Part shown: piece by piece, positions 12,501 to 54,719 of the stretch
Layout of the letters: every line of letters begins with the position of its first letter
How positions within the stretch are numbered: position 1 is the first letter of the stretch
DNA from: Styela clava
Lineage: Eukaryota
DNA: 64,000 nucleotides
NCBI RefSeq assembly: GCF_964204865.1
Contig: NC_135254.1
Span: forward strand, 10,664,001-10,728,000
Reading direction: 5' to 3'
Program-made: the position numbers and the translations under genes
Notes under the pieces: model-generated
Database searches by the model: none
What the model was told of the DNA's origin: nothing
Seen by the model: only the letters and a program-made list of their open reading frames with translations

Positions 12501-15099
12501 AAGTCAAAAATAAAGAGAAGCGGTAATATAGGGACTATTTAAAATTTTTTGGAATATTAGCTATTTTATCACCTTTTGATTAGAGCGAATAGCATAGTTA
12601 AAGGCAACGGCGTTGAGTCAGTGGAAACATTCGTAACATAATTACAAAAAGACGTGTGTTCGACGTGACTTATGTGAAAGAGTTTAACAGAGCCCATTGT
12701 TCATTTCCCAATCTCTTTTTAGCATTAATTGTAATAAATGGTCAGTTTTCGGGAAATGAAGACGTAATAATATAAATTTAAAATGAGTTTTCCATTCTCA
12801 CCTAGTTGAGTCGGAGCTGTGTTCATAAAGGCACAGGTAGCGGATGGCGTGCATATCTAAAAACAACGTTCAAATTGTTCATTCGGCATGCAAGTATTTT
12901 AACCGAGCTAACTATAATAAACAAGCATTTTGAACGGAAAGTCAATCATAATAAGTTATATATCTAAAACAAGTTTACTTCAGACTGTGTTGCCGTGTCA
13001 TTGCATGAGTATGGACCAATTCTTCCGCTGTCAACACAAGTTCGGTTACGCTGTCTTATTCCCGGGCATTCACAACTTCCCCAAGACTCCAATGATCCCT
13101 AGTTCCAGCCTGCAGAAACATACAAAGAAAAATAGGAGGTATATTCTTTACAACTAAGTATTCTGGATCAATTTTTTATCAGTAAATGTAAATCAAGGTG
13201 AACTGTTAATACAGTATGAGCGGCAGAAACAATAGCATAGATGTGCAAGGTATATAAGTAGTGATAAGATCAAAAACAGTTAGATAGTTTTGCTTGCAGT
13301 AAATTTATGATATTGTGAAACTGCTTTCTTTAAACATAATTTATCCAGTTAAATTTAAAATATTGGACCCAGATAACCCAATTCTCAATTTTTCTTAAGA
13401 GTATTTGCTCAAAGCAAAGTTAGTCGCACTCATTCGGAATAAAGAATACTAGTATCTGATAAATATACGGGCGGTAGCTAAAATGCCAAGTGTCACTGCA
13501 ATTATACAGTATTTCGTTGGTGCAATAAACACCAGCGGATGCCTGCTGATGCGTTACTACAAGCAGTTCAAATTAATGCTATAATGAGCATAATCATGGG
13601 CAGTAACTCTTGACATGGTTACAATTTATCAAATTGGCGTTAAAATATATAAATAGGTATTTGCAAAAAGATTTTGACTCTTGTGTTTTACAAAGTTCAG
13701 ACGACCATTTATTGCATAAAAGATTAGTCCGTATTCACAAAAAATATATAATCTACAAATTAAGTATAAATTTATTACAAACAAATGTTATTACCGATTA
13801 ATCGTTGACAGACAAATCCAGTTGGTAAATTCGCAGCGCAATCGACGTCAGACCACGGTAGATTTGCAATATACGTGTGAAACCACCCTATAGCACCACA
13901 AGGTTGGGGTCTCCCACTAGAAGGTTCTCCTGCGTTCCAGTTAGTGTAGGTTAGTTCTGAATTGTCATTCCATATGAAGGTATTACTTGTGCCAACTTCC
14001 TTTAAGCCAATATAAAATCCATATGGTGTTCCTGTAAGTGTAGACAATAAAATGCTGTAGAGCAGGGTTTGTCAAACTGGGGCCCTCGGGCCCGCGGTAC
14101 GTGTTGACTGCACAGAGAGTCCGCAACGATATGAAAAGATTGTGATTGATCTTTAACGATTGATCTTAATCAACAAGTCATAGCATCTTTTTGGTTCAGC
14201 TTTGTGGACAAATATTGCAGTCAGTAAAAGCGATTTCAATTTCATTGCTATTTGCGACGATCTACATTGTGAGGCAGCATTTTTAGCTCTTACCAATATG
14301 ATGACAAAATACAAGTCGAGACTTGTCGTATAATCGAACCTACAAGTTTACTAGTCACAAATTGCTCAAGAATCGATAAATTGAGCAGTGAAAAGCATTA
14401 TTACCGTTTATGTTGTTATGTTGACAAAACAAATTCTTTCCCCGTTGGTTAGGCGCAAAAACTGATACGGGGTCTGTCAAACCTAAGATTCACAAATAGG
14501 GGTCAGACCCAAAAAGTTTGGGAAACCCTGCTTTAGAGTAATAAAAAGTTTTGTCGTGTGTAATATTTGTTGAATGTAAACATCACTGGTTGGAACTGTT
14601 GGAGATAAATGAAACTATATTCTTATATATGACGACTGACGAATTAAACAATTCTCAAACAAACGTATGGAGTATTCTAACGCAAATCCTAAAACGCACG
14701 AACAAAGATTCTAATGATCATAACGTTAAATACTCTTAAGCAAATTCATTCCGGGATCTGGGGTAAAGCGTAAAATGTCCTGTTTACCTGAGGTAGCTGA
14801 GACTTGATTCTGAATAAACGTTTGAATCTCGCTAGTTTTTATCATTGCCATCTCACCATCATTGTTTTTACAGAATGTTTCACCATCAGCATATGATTTT
14901 ATATCTCCATTTCCAGATACGTAGTATTGGTAACTTCCAAATGCATTCCACTCACCTCTACCTGGTCGCAAAAATAAAGAGTTTATCAATCAGCACATAC
15001 TTTGAAAGACATGATAATATATAATATATGCCAACCTGCGCTAACGACGGCAACCATCCAAGCAAATATTCCAACGAATATCAAACGTTGTTCTTTCAT
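9578..15099 (-). pseudogene. B1: SP-CTL-TSP1-CTL-TSP1-stalk-TM-tyrosine tail receptor with a premature stop
   Basis: Exons 15099-15036, 14961-14788, 14031-13795, 13109-12979, 12856-12802, 12375-12202, 11820-11572, 11124-10997, 10607-10403, 10262-10157, 9860-9578 all join in frame. TAG at 13101-13099 replaces the TGG present in A2. TM is LLVSIVSSIVTLILAAILFGIGLLI. Confidence 0.82.
14063..14530. mobile_element. hAT (Charlie-like) MITE in B1 intron 2, longer form
   Basis: Ends CAGGGTTTGTCAAACT / AGTTTGGGAAACCCTG, flanked by CTGTAGAG / CTTTAGAG (8-bp TSD, 1 mismatch). Confidence 0.85.
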
Positions 15100-16508
15100 T
15101 TCCGCGGCTAATTATCTAACATTTCTAACTTTCTTAACCCGTACAATTCTGATTTAAATCCAAAAATTGAATAAAACGAGATTGATATATACCAGATAAG
15201 CAAAACTAACGACATAAACTTTCCATGACAATACTAAAACATCAAAAGCTATGAATCGATTAGATAACACTACTAAATATGTACAAAGCAAATAATACAA
15301 TTCATAATACTTTATGCAATACTTAGGAATGAATGATTTGATTGCCCACAATAGCACTAAATGTAATTATTCAAAAATCTTCGATATTATTTTCAGTACA
15401 CTGCAAATAATTATCAAATTTCTAGCCGCATTAATTTCAGTTTCAGAAGAGTAATGTAGATGAAACCCTAATTCGACTTGCCAGGATGAAATCATAAGCA
15501 ATATGATCTGACAGTTCTTACTATTCAATATTTAGGCGTAATATGAGTAATGAGGTTAACATTTTTACACATGTTAAAATAAAGCGTTTGTGGGGGACAG
15601 AAAGAGTAAAACTTACTGTCATGAGTTGGACATTTCCATAACCTTTTAGTTACAACGTTTTTAAATGACAGCAAAGAGATGATTAATGACGAATATGCTG
15701 CAGAAGAAGATACCTATTACAAAGCTAATTAGCAATGTTATAATATTATCTAGTCACTTATGTTCGTGTTATATATTGAGCAAACCTTATTCATACAGAA
15801 ACATAGTGGCATTTTAAAAAATGACAAAACTCGGATATCAAAATGTAAAAATTATAACAGAGTTGGCCCAATGCTATTTAGTTGAGATTTGAACGAAACA
15901 ATTAGTTTCTATCCTAAAAATAAATATATGTTTTATATTTTAATGTGAATAAAAATAATATCGTTTAGTGCCATTTCACACACATTTGGTTTTCATAAAT
16001 AAATAGTGAGAAATTGAAATTGCAAAACTCCTAAATGCAAGTATATACAAGTGTTATAGTGATCACTGACTCAGAGAAATCTTTATGCGGTAATGTAATC
16101 AATACGGATAAGTGTGTCTTTTGATGCATTATAATAAAACCGTTAAACTTGAGATGAGATAGCGGGTGCTACAGAATTTAGAGGTAATGTTAAAGACATA
16201 ATATATATAAGCAACGGCATTCTTGCGGTTTTGCAATGTTTAGGTACTGGGAATCAGAAATCGATTAGTTGGAGTTCAATTACGACAAAATAGCCTTTGG
16301 ATTCATCACTACAACATCGACAACAACAGTAATTTAGAAAAACGATTTATATGTTCATTTCGTGTTCATAATTTGCACGGGGCAATATTCAAATAACTAT
16401 TTTTGATTGTTACTTTAGATTTCAAGATTAGACACCGGGCTGTCATCATCTGCGTGCCAACAACAAACGGCCCGTCAGGCGATAATGTTACTTGAGCATA
16501 GCGATTAA

Positions 16509-16598
16509 TTAGACTTCTTTTGTCACAATGACATATTCATCACCTTCGGGACCAATAACTGTCCTTTGTATTCTTTTCTGCCTTCGGACTGCCGTGGT
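16509..16598 (-). pseudogene. C1: last ~30 codons of receptor C tail; rest deleted
   Basis: TTAVRRQKRIQRTVIGPEGDEYVIVTKEV* matches 42790-42701. The flank joins directly to sequence found at 44923 in unit 2. Confidence 0.7.
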
Positions 16599-18891: not shown

Positions 18892-21800
18892 TTATTTAAT
18901 GTTGTCAATATTTGCATATGGATCATCGTTTACTTCAATGTCAGCCCCTTCGGCATCTCCCGTGACATCGGAATTCTGATCTGTTTCAGGTTTATTGATC
19001 GTTGCATAAGTTACTTCATTGAAGTTTGAAGAATCATCTTTTCTGGGTTTCTGTACAACAAGGGTCACTTTATTGTCGTCTCCATCTGAAGATGTTTCCT
19101 GTTTCACGGGTTCTTTCGATTTGGTCTTCTGCACGGTAGCGTAAGTCGGACTAGGCACTAGCTTTTCATCAAAAGAATTTTCTGGTTGCGACATTTTTTT
19201 AGAATCCTCAACATAGTGCTTTTGAACCGTTGCGTAAACCACAGGGGAGTTCTCGTCAGGGTAACCAGAAACATTACATTTTTCACTCATTTTTTGCTTA
19301 TCAACAACAGCGTATTGAGTTTCTGATACATCTGCCGCATCCAAATCTTTTGAGAATTTGGATACCTTTTTCGAATTTGTCTTGTTTACAGCAGTATATA
19401 AAGCATTGTCGTTGCCTTCTGTGGTCACATCGTTTATCTGATTCTGATGGTTATCGGCAATGGCGTAGAGGGAATCTTGCCCGTTTGATGAGTCAACTTG
19501 ATCTTCGGGTAAGAGAGAATTATTGTCTGCGTGTCCATCAGGGTTTGCAAACGTCTGATAACGAAGAGTTTCCGTATTTTGAGAATTGTCTCGACCTGAT
19601 TCCACATCTTCGGGATCTGTAGCAGTAAAACATGTTAGTGATATATATTAATATGAATCAGCTGTTTTGACACACTTGAAGCATTTTCGTTTGGAGGAGT
19701 TGGAAAATAGGTCGGAGCCATTCAGATTAACTGACTACATTTGGATACGGACTCATACACCCTATTACCTACTCGAGTTACTTATATTAATATAATAAAC
19801 CAAAACTGAATGCATGATGAAGTTCATTAGAAACAACAATTATGAATTGTTACTGGAAAGATTCTATTTAGTATAGGTTGGTATCGTTGCAACAGGTTGT
19901 GAGTTAAATGTAACATCTTATCTTGTTTTACGCTTCTCTGTGTAGTATTCCTATATGCTATATATTCTCAATATATTTCCCACAAAATCACTTTTTTCCC
20001 ATTAGGCATATAGCTCAAATAAGATAATCATATGTTGCACATTTTGGGGGCTCCCGAAGTATGCGAACCAAGATGGCGGACATCGGAATGTAATATGTGT
20101 ATTAGGTTAAGGTTAGGCCATAATATTAGGTATAAATACTACGGGAGGCTCTTGGCTAGTCTTCGAACTGATAATAGGACTAAAATGAGGAAAATTGGAA
20201 AAAAATTATCGCCTAACCCTAACCTGTTACCCATGTTACGTTCCGATGTCCGCCATCTTGGTTCGCATACTTCGGGAGCACCCCTTTTTGTTTGTCATAC
20301 ATTTACTAGCATGTGGTGGACAGTAAAGTATAAGAATTCATCAACGCAGGTAGAATACGTTGACGTAATACTTTAAATGAAGTTACATTAACTTACGATC
20401 TGACATTATATCTCTCGAATTAAGTTGATTTTCCATTTCTAAATCTTTATGGTAATTGCAACGATCTCCTGTGTTTATGATTCCGCGGCCTCTTCTGAAA
20501 GCAAAACTTTAGATTGTATGCATTCTCGGTGAAATGAGTAAACCCTTAAAAAGATATTTGGTATTTTTTCACTATTCATAAAAGATGTAATGTCATAATG
20601 TTGGGTATATTACCTTTTTTTGAGTTGCTTTGAAAGTATAAAAACAATGATAAGCGCTAAAAGAAGACACCCTCCGATAGTTCCCACGACTGGTCCAATG
20701 ATTGATGTTTGTGCAGCGGGTGTAAATGAACGAAGAATTCCAATCGTCGAAATGTCAGGAATTTCTGTGTGAGATAATATAGGAATTAATATCAGTACAA
20801 TATAAATGATCAGAAATCTAATTTAATACATTATGTTCATTTAACACATTTTTGCGAGCTGAAATTGAATTTAAAATATTTTGCAACGCTCACATTTGAA
20901 AATTAATCGTACGAAAGTTATTTGACTGCTTCATCATGATGTTATACATTTGAACATTCTAATTGGTCTTTTGATCGATGAACAAATGTTGGCCACGTTC
21001 TCGCGTGCATTTTAATAAATGACTCAATTGTAGAAAAGGTGAAACTGATTGTATAAACTTATTATTTGTTATGGCAATGCTGTTATAATCATCCCACGTT
21101 ACGTTTGTTGAAATTATTTGAGTTTGGTTTAAGGAGGATTTTGTCAATATTAACTCTGATCAAATATAGATTGTTGCTTTCATGCAGCTACTAGTATAGG
21201 ATCAAGCCATAAAATTATAAATTGCTGTTATTTTGCGCGTTGCGTGTTGATTGCTACTAGATTCTGGATTGGTAATGACTGTAGAATTCTGCTCAAAGCA
21301 TGTAGTGGCGGCAGTAGACGTAGAATCAGTGTTTGTGGGAGTAGAATCAGATTGAGTAATTCTTCCGGTGGTTGTTTTCATTACCGTTGTTGCTGTAGAC
21401 AAAATTGGCGATGTGACTTCACAATTATTTCATTGACTCGTTTCGTACGTTGATTGTATAATTGTACTTGTAGGGATAGTGGTTTCCAGTGAGCTACTTG
21501 GTATTTCACCGCTACCGAAAGTTGTCATTTCACTTGCCGTCGTCGTCCTCTTCTCATTTATCTGTGTGAGAGACATGGTTGAAGGCCCTGTAATCATCGT
21601 GCTTTCCGTATTAAAAACGTGGCTGTTCGGCGATCTGGATAGTTGAATGGGTAAAAATTTATGCCCGTTCCTTCAGTGCTATTAATTTTAAATTAAGATG
21701 TGAATTAAAAAGTCACTGTCGTCATTTGGTCTTCTTCCGTGCCTGCAAATGAAGAAGAAGTGCCTTGCAAGTTAAAGTTTGCGTTTGCCACAACATACAC

Positions 21801-23738
21801 ACCGGTAGTCATGGTAGTCATTACTTCGGTGGGTTCTTCGTTTGTTGACGAGGTGGTTAACTCATCAGCAGTTGTAGTTAATGGAGATGTTGTTTCCGCA
21901 ACAGTAGTGGTATAACAAGTTGGGTCTTTTGTACAATTTGCAGTCTGTTAAAAATATTAAATCAAACTAAAAGAAAATTGAAATTGATCAGTATAATTAC
22001 AATTCCCAAGCATGGCTTTAAATGGCAAAAGTTTCTGTAACATACCCAGAAAGCATTAATATTTTCAATATACACAGGTTATGATATACAATAGTATCAC
22101 TCTGATTCTTCCACCGCCAAAACGATTTGATCATGCCGTGGAAATAAGTTCTACGCTATACGCTATATTATTTTGAGGTTCAAGATCATCTCTAACATGC
22201 TAAAGTAGATTATTCCGAATGAAGAATGCCATCACTTTATAACGTGGTTACTCGAGAATGAAAAACTATCATTCATTATAGCTGTGTATAAATTTGACAT
22301 TGAGTTCAATCTACACTGCAGTACAAAATTGCAGATAAAATAAACAACCACGACGACAAGAAAATTATAAAATGTACACATTAAATATTTAGCTTCTTCA
22401 TACCTCATTGTGACTGCCAACGCAGGCATCGGGCCCTGTTCGCGGAGAATTGATGCAAGTGCGATTTCTCAATTTGATTATGGTTGAGCAGTTACATTCA
22501 CTCCAAGAAGACCAGGTTCCCCAGTATTTACCTATATTGGAACTGTTATTTTTTATAAATGCAATCAGCTAGATAGTAATATACCTAAATATACAATGGG
22601 GGTGGTTCAGCAAAGTTCGCATTGACTATGAAGTCAATGTCATTAAAATATATAAATATTTATTTGTATAAAGAAATAGGAATTGAGTGGCAAATTTAGT
22701 ATACATTTATTACAAACAAAGTTTTTTACCGATTACTCGTTGACAGACAAATCCAGTTGGCGAATTCTTAGCGCATTCGACGTCATACCACGGTAGATTT
22801 GCAAAATACGCGTTAAACCACCCCATAGCAACACACGGTTCAGGTTTATCACTAGACGGTTCTCCTGAGTTCCAGTTAGTGTAAGTTAGTTCCGAATTGT
22901 CATTCCATATGAAGGTATTGTTTGTGCCAACTTCCTTTAATCCAATATAAAATCCATAGGGTTGTCCTGTAGACAATAAAATGCTTTAAAGCAGAATTTC
23001 CCAAACTGGGGTCTTTTAGCTAAATTGAGCAGTAAAAGCATTAATGACGTGTGTGTTGCTGCATTAATGAAACATTATCCTTCCTCATCTTTCCTCCTGG
23101 TTAGATACATAAATTGATGCGGCATATGATAGGGGTCCGACAATACTAAGATTCACAAATAGGGGTACGCGACTTAAAAAGTTTGGGAAACCCTGCTTCA
23201 GATTAATGGAAAGTGATGTAAGGTTGTATGTAAACATGGCTGGTTAGGACTGTTGGACATAATTGAAAAGAGGTGCAAATATGTAAAGACTGACGAATTC
23301 TCAGACAAACGTATTGAGAATTCTAACCCAAATCACGAAACGCATGAACAAAGATAAAGACCATAATGTTAAATAACCTTAAGCAAATTCATTTCGGGAT
23401 TTGAGGTAAAACGTGAAATGTCCTGTTTACCTGAGGTAGCTGAGACTTGATTCTGAATAAACGTTTGAATCTCGCTAGTTTTTATCATTGCCATCTCACC
23501 ATCATTGTTTTTACAGAATGTTTCACCATCAGCATATGGTTTTATATCTTTTTCTCCAGATACGTAGTATTGGTAACTTCCAAATGCATTCCAATTACCT
23601 CTACCTTGTCGTAAAATAAAGAGTTTATGAATGAGCACATAACTTGAAAGACATGATATATAATAGATACCAACCTGCGCTAACGACAGCAATCATCCAA
23701 GCAAATAATCCAATGTATATAATAGGTTTCTTATTCAT
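18892..23738 (-). CDS. A1: SP-CTL-TSP1-S/T stalk-TM-ITIM/ITSM tail receptor (about 572 aa)
   Basis: Exons 23738-23675, 23604-23431, 22966-22730, 22531-22404, 21944-21803, 20764-20614, 20494-20397, 19616-18892 total 1719 nt, open. TSP1 WGTWSSWSEC...RNRTC; TM IIGPVVGTIGGCLLLALIIVFIL; tail TQYAVV, VVYATV, VTYATI. The donor at 21803 (G|GTGTGT) is inferred from phase. Confidence 0.85.
20046..20284. mobile_element. MITE with long TIRs in an A1 intron
   Basis: GCTCCCGAAGTATGCGAACCAAGATGGCGGACATCGGAA at the left end and its reverse complement at the right end, with T-runs on both flanks. Absent at the paralogous A2 site (about 49310). Confidence 0.9.
22992..23195. mobile_element. Short hAT-type MITE in A1 intron 2
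   Basis: Same termini and intron position as 20-223. Confidence 0.75.
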
Positions 23739-24916
23739 TTCCGCGGCTAAATATATAACATTTCTAACTTTCCCCATAACATTACAATTTGAATACGAAA
23801 ATGGAAATAAAACAAGAATGGTGTGTATTTGCGAGCTGAGAACGTTTTCATCTTCTTCATCAAAAAATGAGAATATTTAAAATAGTGTTTGGTTAGGTTT
23901 GAAAACAACTAACAAAAAATTTGTCTATATATTGTGAATTAACGCTCTGACCGTGAATGCAGCTATGTATTTATTCAGCAGAGAACCCTGCGGAAAACTA
24001 ACGACATGAACTTTTCTTGACAATATTAAAACATCAAAAGCTATGGACCGATTATATACCACTACTAAATTTCTTCCAAAGCTAATAATACAACTTTATG
24101 CAATACTTATGAATGGGTGATTTGTTTGCCCACAATAACATTGAATATAATTATTCGAAAATCTTCGATACTATTTTGAGTACACTGCGACTAATTATCA
24201 AATTTCTATCCACATTACTTTCAGTATCAGAAGAATGATGCAGCTGAAACCTTAATTAGACTCGCCAGGATGAAATTATAAGCAATATGATATAGCATTT
24301 GTTAGATCAGTCAGTTAGATCTGACAGTTCTTATCTTACAATAACTAAGTCTAATATGAGTAATAAAGGTAATATTTTTATAAATGAAAACATAAATAAA
24401 ATTTTTGTGGGGGACAGAATGAAACTTCCTATTACGAGTGGGATGTTTCAATAACCTTTAAAGAAAAGATTAACGACGAATATGCTTCAGAAGACGAAAC
24501 CTATTACAAAGCTACTTAGCAATGTTATAGCATTATTCAGTCACTTATGTTCGTGTTATATATTGAGCAAAGCTTATTCATATAGAAACATCGTGGCATA
24601 TTAAAAACTGATAACACGCAGATATCGTATTGTGGAAAATTAACAGGGTTGGCCTAATACTATTTATTGGAATTTCTACGCAACAATTAGTTAATATTCT
24701 GAAAATACCTGAATTATATTTTAATATACGAATTGTTTCGAATATTGGCCGAATTGTTTTCATATGATATTCTTGATTCTGGTTTCACCAATCAAATCAA
24801 TTTATTCGCCTATGTTGAAAATAATATTTTTTCATCGTCTGTTCGTCCTTGTGGTATATGACTAGGAACTCACAAAATAAATATTATTCATTTCACTACT
24901 GACACATATAAACACT

Positions 24917-24996
24917 TGAATGAATGAATGAATGAATGAATGAATGAATGAATGAATGAATGAATGAATGAATGAATGAATGAATGAATGAATGAA
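24917..24996. repeat. (TGAA)20 microsatellite in the A1/V2 divergent intergenic region
   Basis: Perfect tetranucleotide run. Only 2-3 imperfect units at the paralogous sites (about 1833 and 55655). Confidence 0.95.
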
Positions 24997-27900: not shown

Positions 27901-29427
27901 TGCTATCAACAAAACAGTAAACGACGATTTCATGAGATCTGATCGTTTTTATGATGCTTCAGTAAAGAAAGTCATTATTTTATTTACAGATGGAAGGTAA
28001 TAATTTTATTTCAATGCCTGAATACAAGCAAAATGCATCTTTGCATCGTATCGTTAACTGTTGTTCATGTTTTTGTTATTATTGTTAATTTTCACGGTTC
28101 ATGTAATGGTAGTTAGCAGAGTTCTTTTGATATATCCGTATATTTAGACCCTTTGTTTTTTTTCAACTTGGGTTTCTGCGCGATATATATTATTTTTATA
28201 TCATCAAGATATTAGTTGTTGAAAATCTAAATAAATGTTATTTCAAAGCTTATTACTCAGAATTGCTACTTTATTATTTACCAAATTATTCTAATCTTAG
28301 ACATCCAAAAATTAAGAAGTAGTATAAAACCGTTTTTGTTTTGCTCGATTTATTGAAGGTATGTAGATTATATGTATGTAGATTGTAGATGATTGTAGAT
28401 AATTTTTTAAATCTTTTGAAGATCTACCGACAGAAATGATTTGCTTTTGTCAGCAAAATATGCTCGGTCAAATGGGATTACTATATTTGCAGTTGGTGCT
28501 GGAGGTTATGTAATGGAGGAATTACAGGTAATCTGAAAAGTTGTAACAAATTGAAATAAGAGAAATTTTATGTATCAATATGTTATAGCTTTTCTATCTT
28601 TTGTCTAATCATTATATTTCTGTGTATTGAAGATTGTTCATCAACAAGACTGAGAAAGTATAACCAAATTAGTTATCAGGATAAAACTCTTTTTGACTGA
28701 GATTGATAAGTAACAATGTAGGCTACTGTAGTTGTTTAAATGTTCTTTCTATTTGGGCATTCGTGAGTGAGACCAGCTTCTTCTCTGTTTCTTATATCTG
28801 GGATTGGCAAAAAATATTTCATTCAAATAATATTTTTCTATTAATTAAATAATTAGGCATGATGATGGAGAAATGACGTATCGCGGGAGCTCGAGCTGAT
28901 ATGCGACTGACGACGTTCCATTTAATCGCTGTAGCCCCAGTATTGATGACATTTGTGGCTGCGAGCCATCGCACACTTGATTTGGATTTGTTCGCAATTA
29001 CTGGATGGTGTGCTATATAGTAACTGAGAAAACACGCAAACCTATAAGCCATACTCGCATATTAATTTCATTCTGACAAAATGTCTATAACTCTGGCGAT
29101 GAATTTGTATCCCATGATTAGATAAGTTAGGACTCCATGATCCAGGAGAATTTGGAAATATTGAATAACCATCATTGTATGATACACCGATAAAGTCAAC
29201 TAATACACATTATGCACATGCACGTGATTTGCATATAAATCTACCCGATAGACGCTCAGGATCTCCGCTGACACATGAGGCCCGTTCTCCAGCAAAACTG
29301 TAAGCCATGGAAGCAAAATTGCAGATCAATAACGGCAGTGTATTGCGGAACTGCCAGTTTATTTGGACGCTGCGCGGCTCTTCAGCATCTCAGCTTGTGC
29401 GGTTTTCTGTGTCTAATTGTCAAAACA

Positions 29428-29614
29428 GGTGACCGTACATTTGAACCCATGTACATTTGAACCCATGTGTATATCCGCGGGTTCAATCAATATGCGGGTT
29501 CTAAAACCCATGGGTTAGGTTAGTATGAGTACAAATATCCGTAAAACCAAAAAAATTTCCATAGGTGCAATGGCATGCAGGTGCAATTGTCGTGGGTTCA
29601 AATGTAAAGAAACC
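29428..29614. mobile_element. MITE with 9-bp TSD (Mutator- or Merlin-like) in V2 intron 5
   Basis: GTCAAAACA duplicated at 29419-29427 and 29615-29623. TIR core TACATTTGAACCCA / TGGGTTCAAATGTA. Empty site in V1 and V3. Confidence 0.88.
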
Positions 29615-38100: not shown

Positions 38101-41100
38101 TACCAGTATCATGATTATTTGGTTCTCCTTCACCCCAAAAAGAGAATGACAAGTTTGTTCCATCGTTCCATTGGAACATCGACTTTGATTTTTCATAAAC
38201 GAGTCCAATGTAGAATGTGTATGGTACTCCTGTAATAAGACATATCATATTGATTTATACCCCTAGGACACGTCTAGACAAGTGTTTTAGCGATGACCAA
38301 TCGGTTGAAGCGTACGAAGTAATTATGTTGGCATTACAGATTATTGTTAGATATCAGTTGGGTTTGTACAGGGACTTGTTCGCTAACTAAGCGTTGAATC
38401 CCACGAGAAACGGGCCTATTGCATTCCGTTCGTGATGCCATCAACGATCGAAGTTATTATATCGTCGCAGTACATACATTCCATTGGCTTTCAATGCTTA
38501 AAATAATGCACGTACCTGATTCATCAGAAATGAGTGTTTTTATAAATCCTTGAGTTAATTCATTCTTTATTAATGCAAATTCTCCCTCGCTATTTTTGCA
38601 AAATGTTTTCGAATCTTCATAAGATCTTGATCTACCCGCCGGTGAAACGTAATATTCATAAGTTCCGTTAGGAAACCAGTTTCCTCGGCCTGTTTCACAA
38701 ATAAAATATCGAATAATTGAAAAATATCAGTAACTCGAGAAATGCACGGTGGAACAAGATGGCATCAATTGCAGGCACTTGCTTTAACTTCAATACCGAA
38801 GTGGGAAATAAAGATAAACGTTGATATATTGACGCATTTAAATTTTTCGATTATAAGCCGTTTTAGCACTTTCGGATTAGAGCGAATGGCATAGTAAAAG
38901 CAACGGCGTGATTCAGTGGAGACATTCGTAACCTAGTTACAAAAAAAGAAGTTGGCTTCGACGTGACTTATGTGAAAGAGAATAACAAGCCCATTGTTTA
39001 TATCTCTTTTTTTTGCAACAATTGTAATAACTGGTCAGTATGCTGGGGACTGAAAACGTAACAATATAATTTTACAATGAATTTTTCATTCTCACCTGGT
39101 GGAGTCGGAGTTGTGGTCAATAAAGGCATAGTTGCATTGCAAGAAGCGGATGGCGTGCATATCTAAAAACAACGTTAAATTGTTCAATCGTGCATGTAGG
39201 TGTGTTAATCGAACTAACTGTAAGTCCAAAATATAATCAAAAAAAAAATAATTCTGTAACAATAAAATCCAAATTAATGGGGACCAGACTGGATTTGCAA
39301 GTCACATTTAAAATTAGAATTGGATTATGGAATTATTTCGATACGTTAGTCAATTTGTTTTAATTAATAACTAAGTATGACTAAACTGACTTGAATAAAT
39401 TTATCTGAGTGGAAATGCTGGATGTAGCTAAATAATGTCGTCGATGAAGTTGAGTACAAAAATATACCAAACGATAGTTGTATAATGTAAGTGTGTGTCA
39501 ACAGTGTGCATGAGAAAAAATGTTATTCCCATTTAGAAGTTATCGTTTTGGAACGACAAACTAATCGACATGCTAGAACTTTATAAAAACCCAATCTTAT
39601 ATGTAACAGTCATCAATACAGCTAGGTAATGAGTATTTTGAACGGAAACACAATCATAATGCGTTATATATGTAAACCAAGTTTACTTCCGACTGTGTTG
39701 CTGTATCATTGCAAGAGTTTGGACCAATTCTTCCGCTGTCAACACATGTTCGGTTACGCTGCCTTATTCCCTGGCATTCACGACTTCCCCAAGACTCCCA
39801 TGATCCCAAGTTCAAACCTGCAGAAACATACAGATCAATATAAGAATTATACAACTAATTATTTGGAAGCAGTTTTTTTATCAGTAAATGTAAATCAAGA
39901 TGAACTGTTAATACAGTATGAGCGGTATAGAAACATTAGCATAGCTGTGCAAGGTATATATAAACAGTGATAAAAGGTCATTATTAAAACTTTAATTAAT
40001 ACATGAAAAGAATGTTTTTTGCGCTAATAGCAAATCAAAAGCAGTTAGTTAGTTTTGCTTGCAGTAAATTTATGATATTGTGAAACTGCTTTCTTTAATA
40101 AACATAATTTATCTAGTAAAATTTTAAACATTGGACAGATAACCCAATTCTAAATTTTCCTCAAGACAATTTTCTCAAAGTAAAGTTAGTCGCACTCATT
40201 CGGAATAAAGAATACTAGTATTTGATAAAAATACGGGCTGTGGCTGAAATGCCAAGTGTCACTGAAATTATACAGTATTTTGGTGGTGCAATAAACACCA
40301 GCGGATGCCTGATGCCTGTGGTAATACAAGCAGTTCAAATCAATGCTATAATGAGCATAATCACGGGCAGTAACTCTTGACATGGTTAAAATTTACTAAA
40401 TTGGCGTTAAAATATATAAATAGGTATTTGCAAAAAGATTATAACTCTTGTGTTTTACAAAGTTCAGACAACCATTTATTGCATAAAAGATTAGGCCGTA
40501 TTCACAACAAATACATAACCTACAAATTAAGTATATATTTATTACAAACAAATGTTTTTACCGATTAATCGTTGACAGACAAATCCAGTTGGCGAATTCG
40601 CAGCGCAATTGACGTCATACCACGGTAGATTTAAAAAATATACGTTAAACCATCCCATAGCACCACAAGGTTGGGATCTCTCACTAGAAGGTTCTCCTGA
40701 GTTCCAGTTAGTGTAAGTTAGTTCAGAATTGTCATTCCACATGAAGGTATTGCTTGTGCCAACTTCCTTTAATCCAATATAAAATCCATAGGGTTGTCCT
40801 GTAGACAATAAAATGCCTTAGAGAAAAAAAAAGTTTTGTCGTGTGTAATATTTGTTGTATGTAAACATGATTGGTTGGGACTGTTGGACATTATTGTAAA
40901 CATGTACAAATATATGAACACTGACGGTTTATAAAATAAAACAAAAAACGTAAAATGTTCTATTTATATATACCTGAAGTAGCTGAGACTTGATTCTGAA
41001 TAAACGTTTGAATCTCGCTTGTTTTTATCATTGCCATCTCCCCACTATTGTTTTTACAGAATATTTCACCATAAACATAAGACTTTATATCTCCTTTTCC

Positions 41101-41273
41101 AGATACGAAGTATTGGTAACTACCAAATGCATTCCACTCACCTCTACCTGGTCGCAAAAATAAAGAGTTTATGAATAAGCACATAATATGAAAGACCGGA
41201 TGATATACGATATATACCAACCTGCGTTAACGACGGCGATCATCCAAGCAAATATCAAAAGTTGCTCTTTCAT
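35176..41273 (-). CDS. B2: intact SP-CTL-TSP1-CTL-TSP1-stalk-TM receptor with activating-type tyrosine tail (about 603 aa)
   Basis: Exons 41273-41222, 41147-40974, 40798-40562, 39817-39687, 39162-39096, 38689-38516, 38229-37978, 36797-36670, 36299-36092, 35878-35773, 35458-35176 total 1812 nt, open. CTL1 has EPS/WYD and CTL2 has EPN. Tail: YYEIPHNYEEIKDENHQYEEM...PYINS. Confidence 0.88.
37163..37270 (+). mobile_element. Decayed hAT transposase C-terminal fragment in a B2 intron
   Basis: Reads NFPTLRDFALRI*SML*STYICRSTF, resembling the hAT dimerisation-domain motif, with two stops. Confidence 0.55.
37311..37715. mobile_element. hAT (Charlie-like) MITE in a B2 intron
   Basis: TIR CAGGGGTCGGCAACC / GGTTGTCCACCCCTG; TSD ACCTACAT / GCCTACAT. 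Confidence 0.88.
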
Positions 41274-42700: not shown

Positions 42701-44830
42701 TTAGACTTCTTTTGTCACAATGACATATTCATCACCTTTGGGACCAATAACTGTCCTTTGTATTCTATTCTGCCTTCTGACTGCCGTGGTCTTATCAATT
42801 TCCTCGTATACATCCTGTTCACATGATTTAAAACTTGGATTGACCGGTGTTGCAACCTTAATGTAGTCATCATCAAGACTCCCTTCTTCAGCTAGAGATG
42901 AACGGAGAGCGGTCCAGACTACTTTGGTTGTTGATTCCCTTTGTATTTCAGCGAAAATTTCGTTTCAACTTTCCACAGGAGATTTTCTATCGTTCATTGA
43001 TATTGGTATTGCAGGTAAAATCATATTCTGTATGACTGAATTATTCTTATTTGAATCATTGTTGAGACTTTCTTTAGTTCTCCGGGATTCTTCGGTGTCT
43101 GTAGATTTTTTGCTCGTATTCTATTGCTCTATATAGCATAATATCATTTCCGATTTTTATAACTGTGACTTTTGGTAAGGTCGGCAAAGTACTGCGCTAA
43201 AATATTTTGATCCTGCTACTATTTTTTGTCTTTCTTCTCATTGAATTTTGTTTTGTTAGGATAACTTCAGGCAGCTGTACAACCTATAATGACACAGTTT
43301 TCATTTCCGCCATTATTATTGGGTTTTCCAGTAAACCAAGTTTCATAAGATTCAACCTCGCCATCAATCCACGCAAAGATGTTATTTCTCACTCTTTATA
43401 AACTAATAAAAAAGTCATATGGCTTATCTGTGCAATAAATTTTTGTTGTTAAAATTTTGTCGATTATTATGGGCTACAATAAATCTTTGTAGACACGGCC
43501 TTGCTCGTTAATAGTTCAAGCCAAAATAATATCCAATAATTCAGAAACTTCAAAATTAAACAAATTTTTATCAGCTATATAAAAAATCTTTCGTCACATT
43601 TTCAGCAACTTTATGTCAAACTTATTACTACGCATTTTCAATACTGAATGACGCTACACAAAAAACATCAAGAAAGGAGTATTTGCTCAATGTCATAGCC
43701 TATACAACATTGGTAACCAAACTATTATCGCTCGTGGCTCCCTACCAGAGGCGTTTAGCATTCATGGCCCCCTGTTTATGATTCCAGTAGTATTTTATTT
43801 TGTAGTGTTATTTTAATTGGTAATTTCCAAATCCCATCATGTTCAAACAAGTAAAAATACCTTGTGAAATAACTTTAACGTCAATGAAATTAGGAAAAAC
43901 TTGAAATTTCCATGTGAAGGAAAAAGTAAAATCAGAGTTGAGTCTAGCATGATGGCCCCCTCCAACTGCTCTGTAGCCTTTGTGAACCACAGGTACCCGG
44001 TTGGGAACTGCTGCTATACAATATAATACCTGAGTCCGATATCACAATACTAGGAATGAAATTTTGCGTTTCGCTTGTTTTACCAAAAGCATCCCACCCT
44101 GTTTTATACAAAAGTTTTTACTTTTGACGAAACTCCTTATGTCATCAGCTTTGGATACATAATATTTGATATTTTTATAGTCTCTGCCAACTCCCATGAC
44201 GATCTATTTAGAGAAAAACTTTGGTACACTGGTTGTGTACATTAAAATTTATATAAAAAAAACTCAATCGGCTTTTGGTGTTCGAAAATATGAGACTAAT
44301 AATTTTAATAGACTATTTTTATCTGGCTACTGTTTAATAATTTCGTAAACTCTTTAAAAGACCTTTGAAAATTAAAACATTTTTGGGGATGTATTTATTT
44401 ATTTTTAACATTGTAATTATTTCCATCATCGTTGTAATATTGAGTGTCAAATTGGGACAATATCTCGAGTGCAGAATACATGCTTTGAAGAGAATCGACT
44501 TACATATATCACGTACCTTGGACAGAAATAAATTCATAAAGGTTCGTGCTTTGAGTTGTTGTTGTTGATCGGGTTGGTATAATATATGTCGATGCCGTTG
44601 AAAGGAATTTTGTCTACCGTATTCTGGGAACTGGTTTTATCCGATGTCGATATTGCCTCTAGAGTTGTCTGCTGGACTGATTGATTGACGAAGTGCAAAG
44701 CAAAGACAATCTCATTATCATAAACTGTTGAGGCGATGTTGTCAGCGTTTGCTGTTGTCGATTCGTCCAACCCGAAACCGATGAGCCCAGAACAGGTATT
44801 TAAAAAATCACAACAACTAAGCTTCAACAT
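42701..44830 (-). pseudogene. C2: decayed third C-type lectin receptor paralogue with a distinct tyrosine tail
   Basis: A 174-nt exon 44203-44030 (YYVSKADDIRSFVKSKNFCIKQGG...KTSETQNFI...SDSG, with a stop and frameshifts). An exon from 43427 (DKPYDFFISL*RVRNNIFAWIDGEVESYETWFTGKPNNNGGNENCVIIG). A tail at about 43120-42701 (...DDDYIKV...QDVYEEI...GDEYVIVTKEV*, internal TGA at 42967-42965). A possible N-terminal exon at about 44830-44517. Confidence 0.8.
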
Positions 44831-48154: not shown

Positions 48155-51100
48155 TTATTCAATGTTGTCAATATTTGCATATGGATCATCGTTTACTTCA
48201 ATGTCAGCCCCTTCGGCATCTCCCGTGACATCGGAATTCTGATCTGTTTCAGATTTATTGACCGTTGCATAAGTTACTTCATTGAAGTTTGAAGAATCAT
48301 CTTTTTTGGGTTTCTGTACAACAGCAAGGGTCACTTTATTGTCGTCTCCATCTGAAGATGTTTCCTGTTTCACGGGGTCTTTCGATTTGGTCTTCTGCAC
48401 GGTAGCGTAAGTCGGACCAGGCACTAGCTTTCCATCAAAGGTATTTTCTGGTTGCGACATTTTTTCAGAATCCACAACATTGTGTTTTTGAACCGTTGCG
48501 TAAACCTCAGGGGTGTTCTCGTCAGGATAACAAGAAACATTAATTATTTCGCTCTTTTTTTGCTTATCAACGAAAGCGTATTGAGTTTCTGATACATCTG
48601 CCGCATCCAAATCTTTTGAGGATTTAAATAACTTTTTCGATTTTGTCTTGTTTACAGCAGTATATATAGCATTGTCGTTGCCTTCTGGGGTCACATCGTT
48701 TATCTGATTCTGATGGTTATCGGCAATGGCGTGGAGGGAATCTTGCCCGTTTGATGAGTCAACTTGATCTTCGGGTAAGTGAGAATTATTGTCTGCCTGT
48801 CCATCAGGGTTTACAAACGTCTGATAACGGAGAGTTTCCGTATTTTGAGAATGGTCTCGACCTAATTCCACATCTTCGGGATCTGTAGCAGTAAAACATG
48901 TTAGTGATAAATATTAATATGAAGCAGCTGTTTTGACACACTTGAAGCATTTTCGTTTGGAGGAGTTGGAAAATAGGTCGGAGCCATTCAGATTAACTGA
49001 CTACAGATTTGAATAAGGATTCATACAAGCTATTACCTACTCGAGTTACTTATTTTAATATAATCACCATAACTGAATGCATGATGAAGTTCATTAGAAA
49101 CAACAATTCTGAATTTTTACGTGGAAAGATTCTATTTAGTATCGGTTGGTATCGTTGCAACAGGTTGTGATTTAAATGTAACACCTTTTCTTGTTTTACG
49201 CTTCTCTGTGTAGTATTCCTATATGCTATATATTCTTAATATATTTCCCGCAAAATCACTTTTTTCCCATTAGGCATATAGTTCAAATAAGATAATCATA
49301 TGGTGCACATAGAAATGAGTATTCCTTTTTGTTTGTCATACATTTACTAGCATGTGATGGACAGTAAAGTATAAGAATTCATCAACCCAGATAGAATACG
49401 TTGACGTAATACTTTAAATGAAGTTACATTAACTTACGATCTGACATTATATCTCTCGGATTAAGTTGATTTTCCATTTCTAACCCTTCATTGTAATTAC
49501 AACGATCTCCTGTGTTTATGATTCCGCGGCCTCTGCTGAAAGCAAAACTTTAGATTATATGCATTCTCGGTGAAATGAGTAAACCCCTATTAAAAAGATA
49601 TTTGGTATTTGTTCACTATTCATAAAAGATGTAATGTCATAATGTTGGATATACTACCTTTTTTTGAGTTGCTTTGAAAGTATAAAAACAATGATAAGCG
49701 CTAAAAGAAGAAACCCTCCGATAATTCCCACGACTGGCCCAATAATTGATGTTTGTGCAGCGGGTGTAGATGGACGAAGAATTCCAATCGTCGAAATTTC
49801 AGGAACTTCTGTGTGAGATAATATAGGAATTAATATCAGTACAATATAAATGATCAGAAAATTGATTTAATACATTATGTTCATTTAAACAAGCTGACAC
49901 ATTTTCGCGAGCTGAAACTGAATTTAAAATATTTTGCAACGCTACCATTTGAAAATTAATCGTACGAAAGTTATTTGACTGCTTCATTCTGATGTTATAC
50001 ATTTGAACATTCTAATTGGTCTTTTGATCGATGAACAAATGTTGGCCACGTTCTCGCGTGCATTTTAATAAATGACTCAATTGTAGAAAAGGTGAAACTG
50101 ATTGTATAAACTTATGATTTGTTATGGTAAACTATTGCTAATGCTGTTATAATCATCCCACGTTACGTTTGTTGGTATTATTTGAATTTGGTTTAAGGCG
50201 GATTTTGCCAATATTAACTCTGATCAAATATAGATTGTTGCTTTCATGCAGCTACTAGTATAGGATCAAGCCATAAAATTATAAATTGCTGTTATTTTGC
50301 GCGTTGCGTGTTGATTGCTACTAGATTCCGGATTGGTAATGACTGTAAAATTCTGCTCAAAGCTTGTAGTGGCGGCAGTAGACGTGGAATCAGTGTTTGT
50401 GGGAGTAGAATCAAACTGAGTAATTCTTCCGGTGGTTGTTTTCATTACAGTTGTTGCTGTAGACAAAATGGGTGATGTGACTTCAAAATTACTTCCTTCG
50501 CTCGTTTCGTACGTTGATTGTCTAATTGTACTTGCAGGGATAGTGGTTTCCAATGAGCTACTTGGTATTTCTGCGCTACCGAAAGTTGTCTCATTTGCCA
50601 TCGTCGTTCTCCTCTCATTTATCTGTGTGAGAGACATGGTTGAAGGCCTGTAATCATCGTGCTTTCCGTATTAAAAGCGTGGCTGATCGGCGATCTGGAT
50701 AGTTGAATGGGCAAAAATTTATGCCCGTTCAGTGCTATTAATTCTAAATTTAGATGTGAATTAAAAAGTCACTGTCGTCATTTGGTCTTGTTCCGTACCT
50801 GCGAATGAAGATGAAGTGCCGTGCAAGTTAAAGGTTGCGTTTGCCACAACATACACACCGGTAGTCATGGTAGTCATTACGTCGGTGGGTTCTTCGTTTG
50901 TGGACGAGGTGGTTAACTCACCAGCAGTTGTAGTTAATTGAAATGTGGTTTCCGCAACTGTAGTCGTATAACAAGCCGGGTCTTTTGTACAATTTGCAGT
51001 CTGTTAAAAATATTAAATCAAACTAAGGGAAAATTGAAATTGATCACTATTATTACTATTCCCAAACAGTACTTTTAAATGGCAAAAGTTTCTGTAACAT

Positions 51101-54100
51101 ACCCGGAAAGCAATAATATTTTAAATATACACAGGCTATGATATACAATAGTATCACTCTGATTATTCCACCGCCAAAACGATTTGATCATGCCGTGGAA
51201 ATAAGTTCGACGTTATACGCTATATTATTTTGAGGTTCAAGACCCTCTCTAACATGCTTAAGTAGATTATTCCGAATGGAGAATGCCATCACTTTATAAC
51301 GTGGTTACTCGAGAATGAAAAACTATCATTTGATATAGCTGTGAATAAATTTGACATCGAGTTAAAGCTACACTGCAGTACAAAACTGCAGATAAAATAA
51401 ACAACAACGACGACAAAAAAATAATAAAATGTACACATTAAATATTTAGCTTCTACATACCTCATTGCGGCTGCCAGCGCAGGCATCGAGCCTTGTTCGC
51501 GGAGAATTAATGCATGTGCGATTTCTCAATTTGATTATGGTTGAGCAGTTACATTCACTCCAAGAAGACCAGGTTCCCCAGTATTTACCTATATTGGAAC
51601 TGTTATTTTTTTATAAATGCAATCAGCTAGATAGTAATATATATAGATATACAAAGGGGGTTTTCAGCAAAGTTCTAACTTTCTAACAAACTTTTTTGCA
51701 AAATGTTCTCGAATCTTCATAAGATCCTGAACTACCATCCGTTGGAACATAGTATTCATAACTTCCATTAGAAAACCAGATTCCTCGATCTGTTTCACCA
51801 ATTAAATATCAAATAATAGAATAATGACAGTATCTCGAAAAATGCGCAGTGAAAATGCGTGAGCTAGTGAAAACAATTGAAAAATAATTACGAAAAATAG
51901 TTGGCTTTGGCGTGACTCATATGGAAGCGAATAACAGAGCCCATTGTTCATATATCCCATCTCTTTTCCCCGACGATTGCAATAAGTGTCCAGTTTGATG
52001 GGAAATGAAGACGTAACATGGGTTTTTCATTCTCACCTTGTGGAGTCGGAGCTGTGGTCACTAACGGCATAGTTGCATTGCAGGAAGCGGATGGCGTGCA
52101 TATCTAAAAACAACGTTCAATTTGTTCAATCGTGCATGTAGGTGTTTTAACTAAACTAAATGTAAGTCAAAAATTTAATATTTAATGTAGAATGATCAAA
52201 AAATGATTGGCAATGAAATCCGAATTAGTTGGGTCCGGACTGAAGGGTTCGCAAGTCACATTCAAAATTGGATTATGGAAATATTTTGATACGTCAATCA
52301 ATCTGAATTAGTAACAAAATACGACTAAACTGACTTGAATAAATTTACCTGGGTGGCAATTCTAGGTGTGGCTATTAATGTCGTCGATGAAGTTAGGGAC
52401 AAAAATCTACAAAACGGTTGTTATATAACGTAATTGAGTCTCAACATGGATATGTATGGGTATTTTTTTTTTATTTCATTGGAAAGTTAGTTTTCGAACG
52501 ACACACTAATCGACATGCTAGGACCCTATAAAATCCTAAACTTAAATTTAATAGTTATCAAAATAGCCAGGTAATAAGGAAGCATTTTGAACGAAAACAC
52601 AATCATAATGAGCTATATACAGTGGTGGGATTCAGCCGGTTCGCACCGGTTCTATAGAACCGTCTCACGGAATTTTATGAGATCAGCGAACCGGTTAGCA
52701 TTACTGGTTACTGTCAATGTTATATTTGTAACAGATCCGGCTGAAAAAGATGACTTTAGTGAAGGAACCGGCTGACAAAAAATTTGAACCCACCACTGGT
52801 TATATATATATATATATATGTAAAACAATTTTACTTCAAACTGTGATGCCGTATCGTTGCATGAGTATGGACCAATTCTTCCGCTGTCAACACAAGTTCG
52901 GTTTCGCTGCCTCATTCCGGGGCATTCACAGCTTCCCCAGGACTCCCATGATCCCCAATTCCAGCCTGCAGAAACATGTAGATTAAAATATTCGTTATAT
53001 ATTTTACAACCGAGTATTTCAAAGCAATATGATATCAGTAAATTTAAATCAAGATGAACTGTTAATACAATATGAGCGGTAGAAAAAATAGCATAGCTGT
53101 GCATAGTATAAATAACGATGAGATGACATTATGGAAACGTTAAAACATTTTCAAAATCTTTCCTGCACTTATAGCTAATCGAAAAAAGTTTTGTACGGAA
53201 TATTTTAGATGAAATTCAGCTGACACGTTTTTGGCGGTTTTATCGAAAACTGAGATTTCTTCTGACAGTAATTTAATAATATGGCGCTGCTTTCTTTATT
53301 AAACATAATTTATCCAGTTAAATTTAAAACATCTGACCCAGTTAACTCAATTCTCATTTTTTTATAGGAGATTTTACTCAAAGAAAAGTCAGTCGCAATC
53401 ACTCGAAAAATGTAAACTAGTGTCTGATTAAAATGCGCGCAGTCGCAGAGATGCCAAGTGCTACTGAAATCAAACAGTATTTTAATGGTGCAATAAGCAA
53501 CAGCGAATACCTGATGAAGTGATACTTGAAGCACTTTAAATCGATGCTATAAAGTATGAGGCAGTAAACATGGCATGAATAAAATTTACTAGATTGGAGT
53601 CAATGTCATTAAAAATATATAAATATTTATTTGTATAAAGAAATAGAAATTGCGTGGAAAATTTAGTATACATTTATTACAAATAAAGTTTTTTACCGAT
53701 TACTCGTTGACAGACAAATGCAGTTGGCGAATTCGCAGTGCAATTGACGTCATACCACGGTAGATTTGCATAATACGTGTGCCACCACCCCATAGCAACA
53801 CAAGGTTCAGGTTTATCACTAGAAGGTTCTCCTGAGTTCCAGTTAGTGTAAGTTAGTTCCGAATTGTCATTCCAGATGAAGGTATCGTTTGTGCCAACTT
53901 CCTTTAATCCAATATAAAACCCATAGGGTTGTCCTGTAGACAATAAGATGCTTTAGAGCAGAATTTCCCAAACTGGGCTCCCTTAGCTTAATTGAGCAGT
54001 AAAAAGCATTAATGACGTTTGTGTTGCTACATATATGAAACATTATCCTTCCTCATCCTTTCTCCTGGTTAGACACATAAATTGATTCGGCATACCATAG

Positions 54101-54719
54101 GGATCCGACAAAACTAAGATTTACAAATATGGGTACGCGACTTAAAAAGTTTGGGAAACCCTGCTTCAGATTAATGGAAAGTTATGTAAGGTTGTATGTA
54201 AACATGGCTGGTTAGGACTGTTGTACATAATTGAAAACAGGTAAAACAAATACGTAAAGACTGACGAATTAAAAATTCTCAAACCAACGTATTGAGAATT
54301 CCAACACAAATCCCAAAACGCATGAACAAAGATAAAAATCATAATGTTAAATAACCTTAAGCAAATTCATTTCGGGATTTGGGGTAAAACGTGAAATGTC
54401 TTGTTTACCTGAGGTAGCTGAGACTTGATTCTGAATAAACATTTGAATCTCGCTAGTTTTTATCATTGCTATCTCACCATCATTGTTTTTACAGAATGTT
54501 TCACCATCAACATAGGATTTTTTATCATCTTTTCCAGATACGTAGTATTGGTAACTTCCAAATGCATTCCACTTACCTCTACCTTGTCGTAAAATAAAGA
54601 GTTTATGAATAAGCACATCATTTGAAAGTCATGATGATATATAGTATATGCCAACCTGCGCTAACGACGGCAACCATCCAAGCAAAAATCCCAACGAATA
54701 TCAAAAGATTCTCCTTCAT
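48155..54719 (-). CDS. A2: SP-CTL-TSP1-TSP1-stalk-TM-ITIM/ITSM tail receptor (about 639 aa if the broken CTL2 exon is skipped)
   Basis: Exons 54719-54656, 54582-54409, 53933-53697, 52965-52835, 52103-52037, 51588-51461, 51000-50859, 49808-49658, 49535-49438, 48882-48155 total 1920 nt, open. A truncated CTL2 exon remnant lies at 51789-51692. Tail TQYAFV, EVYATV, PTYATV, VTYATV. Confidence 0.8.
52620..52798. mobile_element. hAT-type MITE in A2 intron 4
   Basis: TIR CAGTGGTGGGATTCA / TGAACCCACCACTG; TSD GCTATATA / GTTATATA. Empty at the paralogous B1 and B2 sites. Confidence 0.85.
53959..54163. mobile_element. Short hAT-type MITE in A2 intron 2
   Basis: Same termini and position as 20-223; left TSD CTTTAGAG. 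Confidence 0.75.

Follow-up and report, generated by a model that had tools for sequence, protein, structure and literature searches.

A tandem array of C-type lectin receptor genes with two tail types in Styela clava: a mosaic 5' block and probable positive selection on predicted binding loops

Results

Organisation of the receptor array

For the tunicate Styela clava, we analysed a stretch of 64,000 nucleotides (assembly GCF_964204865.1, contig NC_135254.1, positions 10,664,001 to 10,728,000; hereafter the window) that carries five copies of a receptor gene with C-type lectin (CTL) domains, and scanned it together with 200 kb on either side (464 kb, 0 N). This region holds a tandem array with 24 copies of the first lectin domain (CTL1), extending over about 330 kb from roughly -150 kb to +174 kb. 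Eight copies belong to a long-tail class (A), 15 to a short-tail class (B) and one is truncated; the letters are those of a first-pass annotation of the window, and copies outside it are named by class and kb position (p for plus, m for minus). A protein search returned 15 proteins, all from Styela clava and labelled 'uncharacterized' in the database, among which the window copies were matched exon by exon (accessions below). The products are type I membrane proteins with a signal peptide, at least one CTL domain, TSP1 repeats, a serine/threonine-rich (S/T) stalk, a transmembrane segment (TM) and a tail. Pfam finds only Lectin_C and TSP_1 in them, and the Lectin_C profile scores 54.7-90.9 bits against a curated cut-off of 22.6 in six of six proteins, which places the domain among the C-type lectins. 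A and B genes alternate along the window, and full units have the gene order A, X remnant, B, where X is a third CTL receptor type that is intact only as P0163, at the right end of the array. RNA-like contigs from three studies show splicing of both classes; these contigs cannot be assigned to single copies and come from runs whose RNA status is a guess. The receptor genes of the window are as follows (ITIM and ITSM, immunoreceptor tyrosine-based inhibitory and switch motifs).

1..787, minus strand: 5' part of A0 (P0011, LOC144422996), signal exon 787-724 and CTL1 exon a 650-477, with exon b and the remainder left of the window; long-tail class, with a stop after the ITSM that breaks the tail
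9581..15099, minus strand: B1 (P0004, LOC144422855), signal-CTL1-TSP-CTL2-TSP-S/T stalk-TM-short tail; tail (9581-9868) with YEIP, YEEI and YIN, the YEEM tyrosine lost (QNEEM)
13795..14031, minus strand: CTL1 exon b of B1, with the predicted binding loops, EPS...WSD
18895..23738, minus strand: A1 (P0007, LOC144422856), signal-CTL1-TSP-stalk-TM-long tail; two ITIMs (VVYATV, VTYATI) and one ITSM (TQYAVV); RNA-like contigs of the family span its introns
22730..22966, minus strand: CTL1 exon b of A1, in the six-gene core-A clade described below; the codons with putative positive selection fall here
35179..41273, minus strand: B2 (P0003, LOC144422857), signal-CTL1-TSP-CTL2-TSP-stalk-TM-short tail; tail with YEIP, YEEI-x6-YEEM and YIN; RNA-like contigs splice out the family introns 40797-40973 and 38228-38515
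40562..40798, minus strand: CTL1 exon b of B2
48158..54719, minus strand: A2 (P0010, LOC120344702), signal-CTL1-TSP-TSP-stalk-TM-long tail; ITIM VTYATV, ITSM TQYAFV

Recombination across the A/B split

The first-pass annotation had proposed a patchwork exchange of sequence between the 5' ends of A and B genes. We examined it with our own 3Seq-type, pairwise homoplasy index (PHI)-type and GY94 M1a/M2a code and simulation controls, in place of GENECONV, RDP and codeml. In an alignment running from the upstream DNA to exon b, 14 of 60 triplets among the five window copies were significant, and 12 of 60 remained so on silent sites only; the strongest showed A0 and A2 to be like B1 from upstream to intron 1 and like A1 beyond (p 1e-8 and 1.5e-9). 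Across the array, using 22 of the 24 copies (B_m54k was left out for want of a signal exon, and B_p120k as the twin of B_p133k), 454 of 9240 triplets were significant, compared with 0 in each of six one-tree simulations with no recombination. Dropping A_p174k, whose far upstream DNA is non-homologous, left 286 of 7980, and in 175 of these one parent was A and the other B. Breakpoints are spread over all segments. Recombination in the array is real.

Trees built segment by segment are in conflict. In the tree of upstream DNA, signal exon and intron 1 the two classes intermingle, and well-supported branches force at least four changes, while six of the eight A genes, including A0, A1 and A2, form a clade in intron 2 (support 100/100) and in exon b (99/95). 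This core-A group was defined after the trees were seen. In approximately unbiased (AU) tests a core-A clade was rejected upstream (p 5e-6) and borderline in exon a (p 0.058), and a clade of all eight A genes was rejected in intron 2 (p 1e-7) and exon b (p 0.033). The upstream DNA and the signal exon show the strongest mixing of A and B. The five window copies by themselves give the plain A/B division as the commonest informative split in intron 2 (8/14 sites) and exon b (6/13), and only the upstream region is strongly discordant among them, with an A1+B2 split at 17 of 37 sites.

Silent divergence (pS, synonymous differences per site) between A and B was 0.15 in exon a, 0.20 in exon b, 0.23 in the first TSP exon (TSP0) and 0.20 in CTL2 exon a (where a single gene represents A). 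It reached 0.69 in the last TSP exon, against 0.11 within A and 0.22 within B. The binding-side exons are therefore nearer between classes than the membrane-proximal exon, one mark of merohomogenised receptor families, and the low values towards the 5' end, set against 0.69, make the 5' block a pool shared by A and B.

Hybrid genes and bounded tracts

The DNA 1.4-2.8 kb upstream of each gene falls into types that do not follow the tails. The A type stands before seven of the eight A genes (all seven on the minus strand) and before eight of the 15 B genes; a B2 type precedes four B genes and the truncated copy but none of the eight A genes; three B genes and A_p174k have mixed upstream DNA or none of these types. 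The reciprocal hybrid, B upstream DNA on an A body, is thus absent (0/8 vs 8/15). One switch can be located in B_m96k, which passes from an A2-like exon a (98%) to a B1-like intron 2 (95%).

55400..61900, unstranded: A-type upstream intergenic DNA, present also at about 1600-8700 and 24700-31500
53580..55830, minus strand: near-identical bounded tract shared by A2 and A_p163k, from upstream through the whole of CTL1

There are also bounded tracts. A2 and A_p163k, 109 kb apart, differ at 20 of 2249 positions inside theirs and at 92 of 1457 and 57 of 748 in its flanks, which is likely a recent conversion between A genes. A_m113k has a core-A tail (pS 0.00-0.05 to five of the six core-A genes and 0.05 to the other one), introns 96-99% like those of B copies and a B-type exon b. 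A further possible case comes from LOC120344507, for which there are two records (P0005 and P0016) in different accession series, presumably from different assemblies. They share 58 of 79 residues in CTL1 exon b, 30 of 30 in the TM and 272 of 278 in the tail, and CTL2 exon a of P0016 has 55 of 56 residues in common with a B gene; three control pairs of records for other CTL genes were 90-100% identical in every 40-residue window.

Several other likenesses were seen in the upstream DNA. B_m96k and A_p107k, 200 kb apart, are 100% identical in a stretch some 5.0-3.8 kb ahead of exon a, and the upstream DNA of A0 is 98-100% like that of B_p120k and B_p133k. Each A-type upstream region contains an element of about 220 bp (2670-2897, 25719-25939, 56481-56699), found once inverted (33395-33613), and a (TGAA)20 microsatellite lies upstream of A1 (24917-24997).

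Sequence markers quoted for the exchange

The short strings on which the proposal of exchange had been built are all present where they were placed, on the minus strand, but against a background of 23 in-frame copies most of them are weak markers, even though the formal tests confirm the mosaicism itself. KSYVYGE, in A0 (588) and B2 (41085), is private to these two of the 23 copies and crosses the classes, yet contains only about three informative bases; as a conversion tract it was rejected for having too few sites, and the exon a tree neither joins nor separates A0 and B2. YADGE, in B1 (14893) and A1 (23536), is the commonest state (9/23), and W.HTY, in B1 (13885) and A2 (53787), occurs in 8 of 23 and merges WFHTY with WWHTY. 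WFN.YF, in A1 (22820) and B2 (40652), is found in 5 of 23, including A0, whose exon b lies just outside the window. An upstream block had also been reported as shared only by A1 and B2:

23831..23880, unstranded: the flagged block, its second copy starting at 41366

This holds among the window copies, but the alignment shows the block in 13 of 23 copies, among them the outlier A_p174k. The informative state, and likely the derived one, is therefore the deletion, which affects A0, A2, B1 and seven others; the block in A1 and B2 is likely ancestral. The pattern of deletion still cuts across A and B.

Binding domains are not matched in pairs

The same annotation held that gene conversion keeps activating and inhibitory binding domains matched, as in Siglec-5/14, and this we did not find. 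Identities were compared among 21 copies (O_p92k, which has a stop, was also dropped). Across classes, the closest CTL1 to each copy reaches 82-90% amino-acid identity, and 71-88% in the loop segment (WNxGEP..WxDxxC); no A-B pair exceeds 90% in CTL1 or 88% in the loops, and no near-identical pair of a putative activating and a putative inhibitory receptor exists among these copies. Neighbours in the window are not each other's closest relatives, the core-A clade persists in exon b, and a core-A exon b occurs in none of the eight hybrid B genes. Much of the cross-class patchwork lies in the upstream DNA, signal exon and intron 1, and fits hybrids from unequal crossing-over better than conversion.

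Diversity and selection in the predicted loops

As had been noted, variation is concentrated in the loop segment, where the five window copies differ at 15 of 34 positions, compared with 24 of 102 elsewhere. The framework is not 'nearly invariant', as had been stated, and a second variable patch lies in exon a. Among the 21 copies, nonsynonymous divergence (pN) was 0.165 in the loops vs 0.065 elsewhere (permutation p 1.5e-4), and a framework pN/pS of 0.38 indicates purifying selection. Site models (M1a/M2a) for exon b gave a likelihood ratio test statistic (LRT) of 19.8 (p 5e-5), with omega2 at 2.7 on 18% of sites, and 9 of the 12 flagged codons lie inside the loop segment. No positive selection was detected in exon a (LRT 0). 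None of 59 neutral six-block mosaic simulations on four discordant trees reached the value for exon b (maximum 16.3 vs 21.9 on refit). We infer that the predicted loops diversify under positive selection and, from alignment to solved CTLs and the general CTL topology, that they bind ligand. An AlphaFold model of P0013 (19-sequence alignment) had a predicted local distance difference test (pLDDT) score of 47.7 and was not used, so the loop assignment rests on that alignment and topology.

Exon b is also mosaic at short range. PHI was significant at 15 and 30 nt (p 3e-4; z -4.3 vs a minimum of -2.5 in 60 simulations). Codon 50 is either TTT or TGG, with six changes and no one-step intermediate; on its own tree it takes three steps, and double-base homoplasy arose in 0 of 300 and 1 of 300 simulations. 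We read this short-range mosaicism as probable microconversion. The best exon b tract of B2 fits A and B donors almost equally well, and a candidate tract between A_p107k and B2 near the WxD motif (raw p 6.6e-5) was rejected after correction (0.61).

Canonical Ca-dependent sugar-binding CTLs have EPN or QPD plus WND. CTL1 has EPS and WYD (WSD in B1), and CTL2 has EPN but WHT; with EPS/WYD instead of EPN/WND, Ca-dependent sugar binding by CTL1 is not assured. Our best guess for the ligand is a surface ligand of a pathogen or of non-self, possibly other than a Ca-dependent sugar. A search for short CTL1 alleles from other individuals gave no candidates.

Tails and candidate signalling

Long tails have ITIM and ITSM sequence motifs; an ITIM is present in seven of eight proteins scanned, the exception being the truncated P0011, which has only an ITSM. 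Short tails have YEIP, YEEI, in most cases a YEEM six residues further on, and YIN. Among five short tails scanned, YxxI-x6-YxxM is present in four, YEEI in four and YIN in all five; such motifs serve as docking sites for Src, PI3K and Grb2. The tyrosine motifs are retained in most tails. From these motifs, A is likely inhibitory and B likely activating, and we propose that A tails would signal via SHP phosphatases and B tails via Src/PI3K/Grb2. A search for relatives of the B tail returned only four proteins, all from S. clava. Some copies carry changes that would alter signalling or inactivate the gene: stops in the tails of A0 and A_p107k, a frameshift in B_m54k, a stop and truncation in O_p92k, and the loss of the YEEM tyrosine in B1; the X remnants are broken as well.

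Other features of the locus

Some units have been rearranged. B_p133k and B_p120k lie in units that are 99-100% identical and 13.4 kb apart (about +116 to +134 kb), either a very recent duplication or an assembly artefact. In B_m29k (P0001, about -29 to -44 kb) the CTL2-TSP-stalk module is triplicated internally; B_p76k and B_m9k carry a duplication of the module, and core-A genes retain just a decayed CTL2 exon. The X type (P0163/P0085) consists of a CTL, a TM and a long tyrosine tail; its intact copy lies at about +183.9 to +188.3 kb, in the inverted end of the array, and decayed remnants come after most A genes. Judged by eye, the open reading frame 44830-44537 looks like an X N-terminus. 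A distant relative with CTL, TM and tyrosine tail, P0067, flanks the array (about -182.7 to -172 kb), and others (P0076, P0162, P0165) lie on other contigs.

16512..16598, minus strand: fragment of type X, tail of a P0163/P0085-like receptor
42704..43422, minus strand: remnant of type X, deleted and containing stops, between A2 and B2; the intact P0163 is about 120 kb right of the window

Two repeats interrupt introns. An element of about 240 bp with inverted arms of 82 nt (20042-20283), in an intron of A1, has no counterpart at the equivalent site of A2, shows very high contig depth and is bypassed by a contig of another DNA run; it is an insertion like a miniature inverted-repeat transposable element. 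A high-copy repeat lies within an intron of B2 (37300-37800).

Discussion

We favour, as the probable account of this locus, a tandem array of CTL receptors with two tail types whose 5' block has become mosaic by unequal crossing-over and conversion, and whose loops are under positive selection. The basic unit would be A-type upstream DNA, an A gene, an X remnant and a B gene. If A and B crossed over within their homologous 5' blocks, the A body and X would be lost and A-type upstream DNA would come to stand on a B body, and these hybrid B genes, standing behind the upstream DNA of A, may differ in expression. The bounded tracts (A2/A_p163k, and the B-type CTL1 of A_m113k) would be conversions or double crossovers, and short conversions would reshuffle loop codons. 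The outcome would be a common, shifting pool of CTL specificities on either tail, homogenised at the level of the family, with no one-to-one matching. That the ectodomain pool is shared at family level, not by pairwise matching, is what the comparisons give. The observation in the first-pass annotation is partly confirmed and its interpretation partly supported.

Several points weigh against this account. The pS of 0.69 could mean that old paralogous exons were joined once, with no continued homogenisation, and P0016 may be mis-assembled or a mis-assigned paralogue. The loop segment was bounded by canonical CTL motifs after the alignment was seen, the codon model is our own implementation on fixed topologies, and loop pN set against overall pS without a tree gives a ratio of 0.97 (confidence interval 0.62-1.40), not above 1, so that by this test constraint may simply be relaxed. 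PHI was not significant at 60 nt in exon b, nor in exon a, and within exon b no short A-B tract is unambiguous after correction. [quoted passage not shown] Paralogues cannot be separated in the RNA-like contigs, and the runs behind them were taken to be RNA by guess.

A non-adaptive turnover, with crossovers and conversions as side effects of tandem homology, loops under no more than relaxed constraint and decay in many copies, would accommodate the broken copies (B_m54k, O_p92k, the tail stops of A0 and A_p107k, the X remnants), the breakpoints in all segments and the loop pN/pS near 1. We consider it unlikely: the site-model LRT lies above all 59 mosaic-neutral simulations, the framework is under purifying selection, most tails retain their tyrosine motifs, and hybrids occur in one direction only. 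Less probable still is that conversion keeps activating and inhibitory binding domains matched for the same ligand, as for Siglec-5/14. The 5' block is indeed homogenised relative to the membrane-proximal part, A_m113k has a B-type CTL1, P0016 has a B-like CTL2 exon, and A and B alternate in the window, yet at the level of sequence and for this haplotype matching has already failed, with cross-class CTL1 at 82-90% and loops at 71-88%, six of eight A genes forming a clade in intron 2 and exon b, neighbours that are not closest relatives and no core-A exon b in any hybrid B gene. It seems very improbable that the patchwork was produced by assembly errors (switched haplotypes, units collapsed or duplicated) or by repeated point mutation at sites that evolve fast. 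The near-identical 13.4-kb twins could be read in this way, and three of the four quoted protein motifs can be explained without exchange; however, the mosaic signal holds on silent sites and is absent in simulations, copies differ by 4-20%, the 464 kb contain no N, and tracts link copies more than 100 kb apart.

The mosaic array that we favour resembles clusters of paired opposing receptors in vertebrates (KLRC/NKG2, KLRA/Ly49, KLRB, KLRI, PIR, DCIR/DCAR), for which passages of PMC3210942 describe 'merohomogenization', with opposing tails, binding exons homogenised in patches, membrane-proximal and signalling parts kept apart, and contributions from both conversion and recombination. The clustering of similar ectodomains is found here too, with 24 copies of CTL1 at 82-90% across classes. 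In contrast to those systems, the Styela array is invertebrate and of type I CTL-TSP1-stalk design, has no charged TM residue for an adaptor and bears tyrosine motifs in the B tail itself, its homogenisation is loose, and its binding exon separates most A from B. Siglec-5/14 and Siglec-11/16, as covered in parts of PMC6288428, show partial conversion between opposing receptors and common null alleles, and conversion reaching regulatory DNA is said there to have altered SIGLEC11 expression; these are two-gene pairs of Ig-domain proteins with extremely similar ectodomains, DAP12-coupled activators and demonstrated shared ligands, whereas the Styela array has 24 copies and a best cross-class identity of 90%.

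Among invertebrates, Botryllus FF/FcoR are likewise clustered polymorphic type I receptors of a tunicate, with ITIM or hemITAM-type tails and unit copy-number variation (PMC12582321). Identity with FF/FcoR/fester was considered and rejected: FF and FcoR combine Ig-superfamily and Sushi domains (PMC12582321), against Lectin_C and TSP_1 only in the Styela proteins, which are thus not of that family. Hydractinia Alr is also an invertebrate cluster with similar variable ectodomains and ITAM-like or ITIM-like tails, but is cnidarian, built of Ig domains and genetically tied to allorecognition, and the term 'gene conversion' does not occur in the accessible part of that text (10.1101/2022.03.25.485889). 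[quoted passage not shown]

The best matches to CTL1 among solved structures are in the mannose receptor family (MRC1, MRC2, LY75, PLA2R), at about 30% identity and at the level of the domain only. That family (group VI) has a ricin-FNII architecture with 8 to 10 CTLs; the Styela proteins have neither ricin nor FNII, 1-4 CTLs vs 8-10, TSP1 repeats and tyrosine-rich tails. A profile-free search of 1.84 billion representatives gave six intermediate matches that were checked (37-61% identity), all from S. clava; no orthologue outside S. clava was found, which does not prove absence in other tunicates. The full-text matches listed contain no description of the present receptor family, supplements and most subscription journals being outside that scope. 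The array is a real invertebrate one, resembles paired receptors and is apparently previously undescribed.

We hypothesise further, as a doubtful extension, that the array could be an independently evolved invertebrate counterpart of the mammalian natural killer (NK) lectin complex and a haplotype-variable self/non-self locus, in which unequal crossover would continually put activating receptors under the promoter of the inhibitory gene, microconversion would shuffle loop codons as in the major histocompatibility complex (MHC), and whole ectodomains would be swapped from one individual to another while the inhibitory tail stayed the same. In mammals opposing receptors are already known to be homogenised, and the ITIM/ITAM-type clusters of Botryllus and Hydractinia are built from Ig domains. 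[quoted passage not shown] For Styela the array supplies specific candidates for receptors that recognise non-self, and it offers a natural test of whether clusters of inhibitory receptors repeatedly give rise to activating ones.

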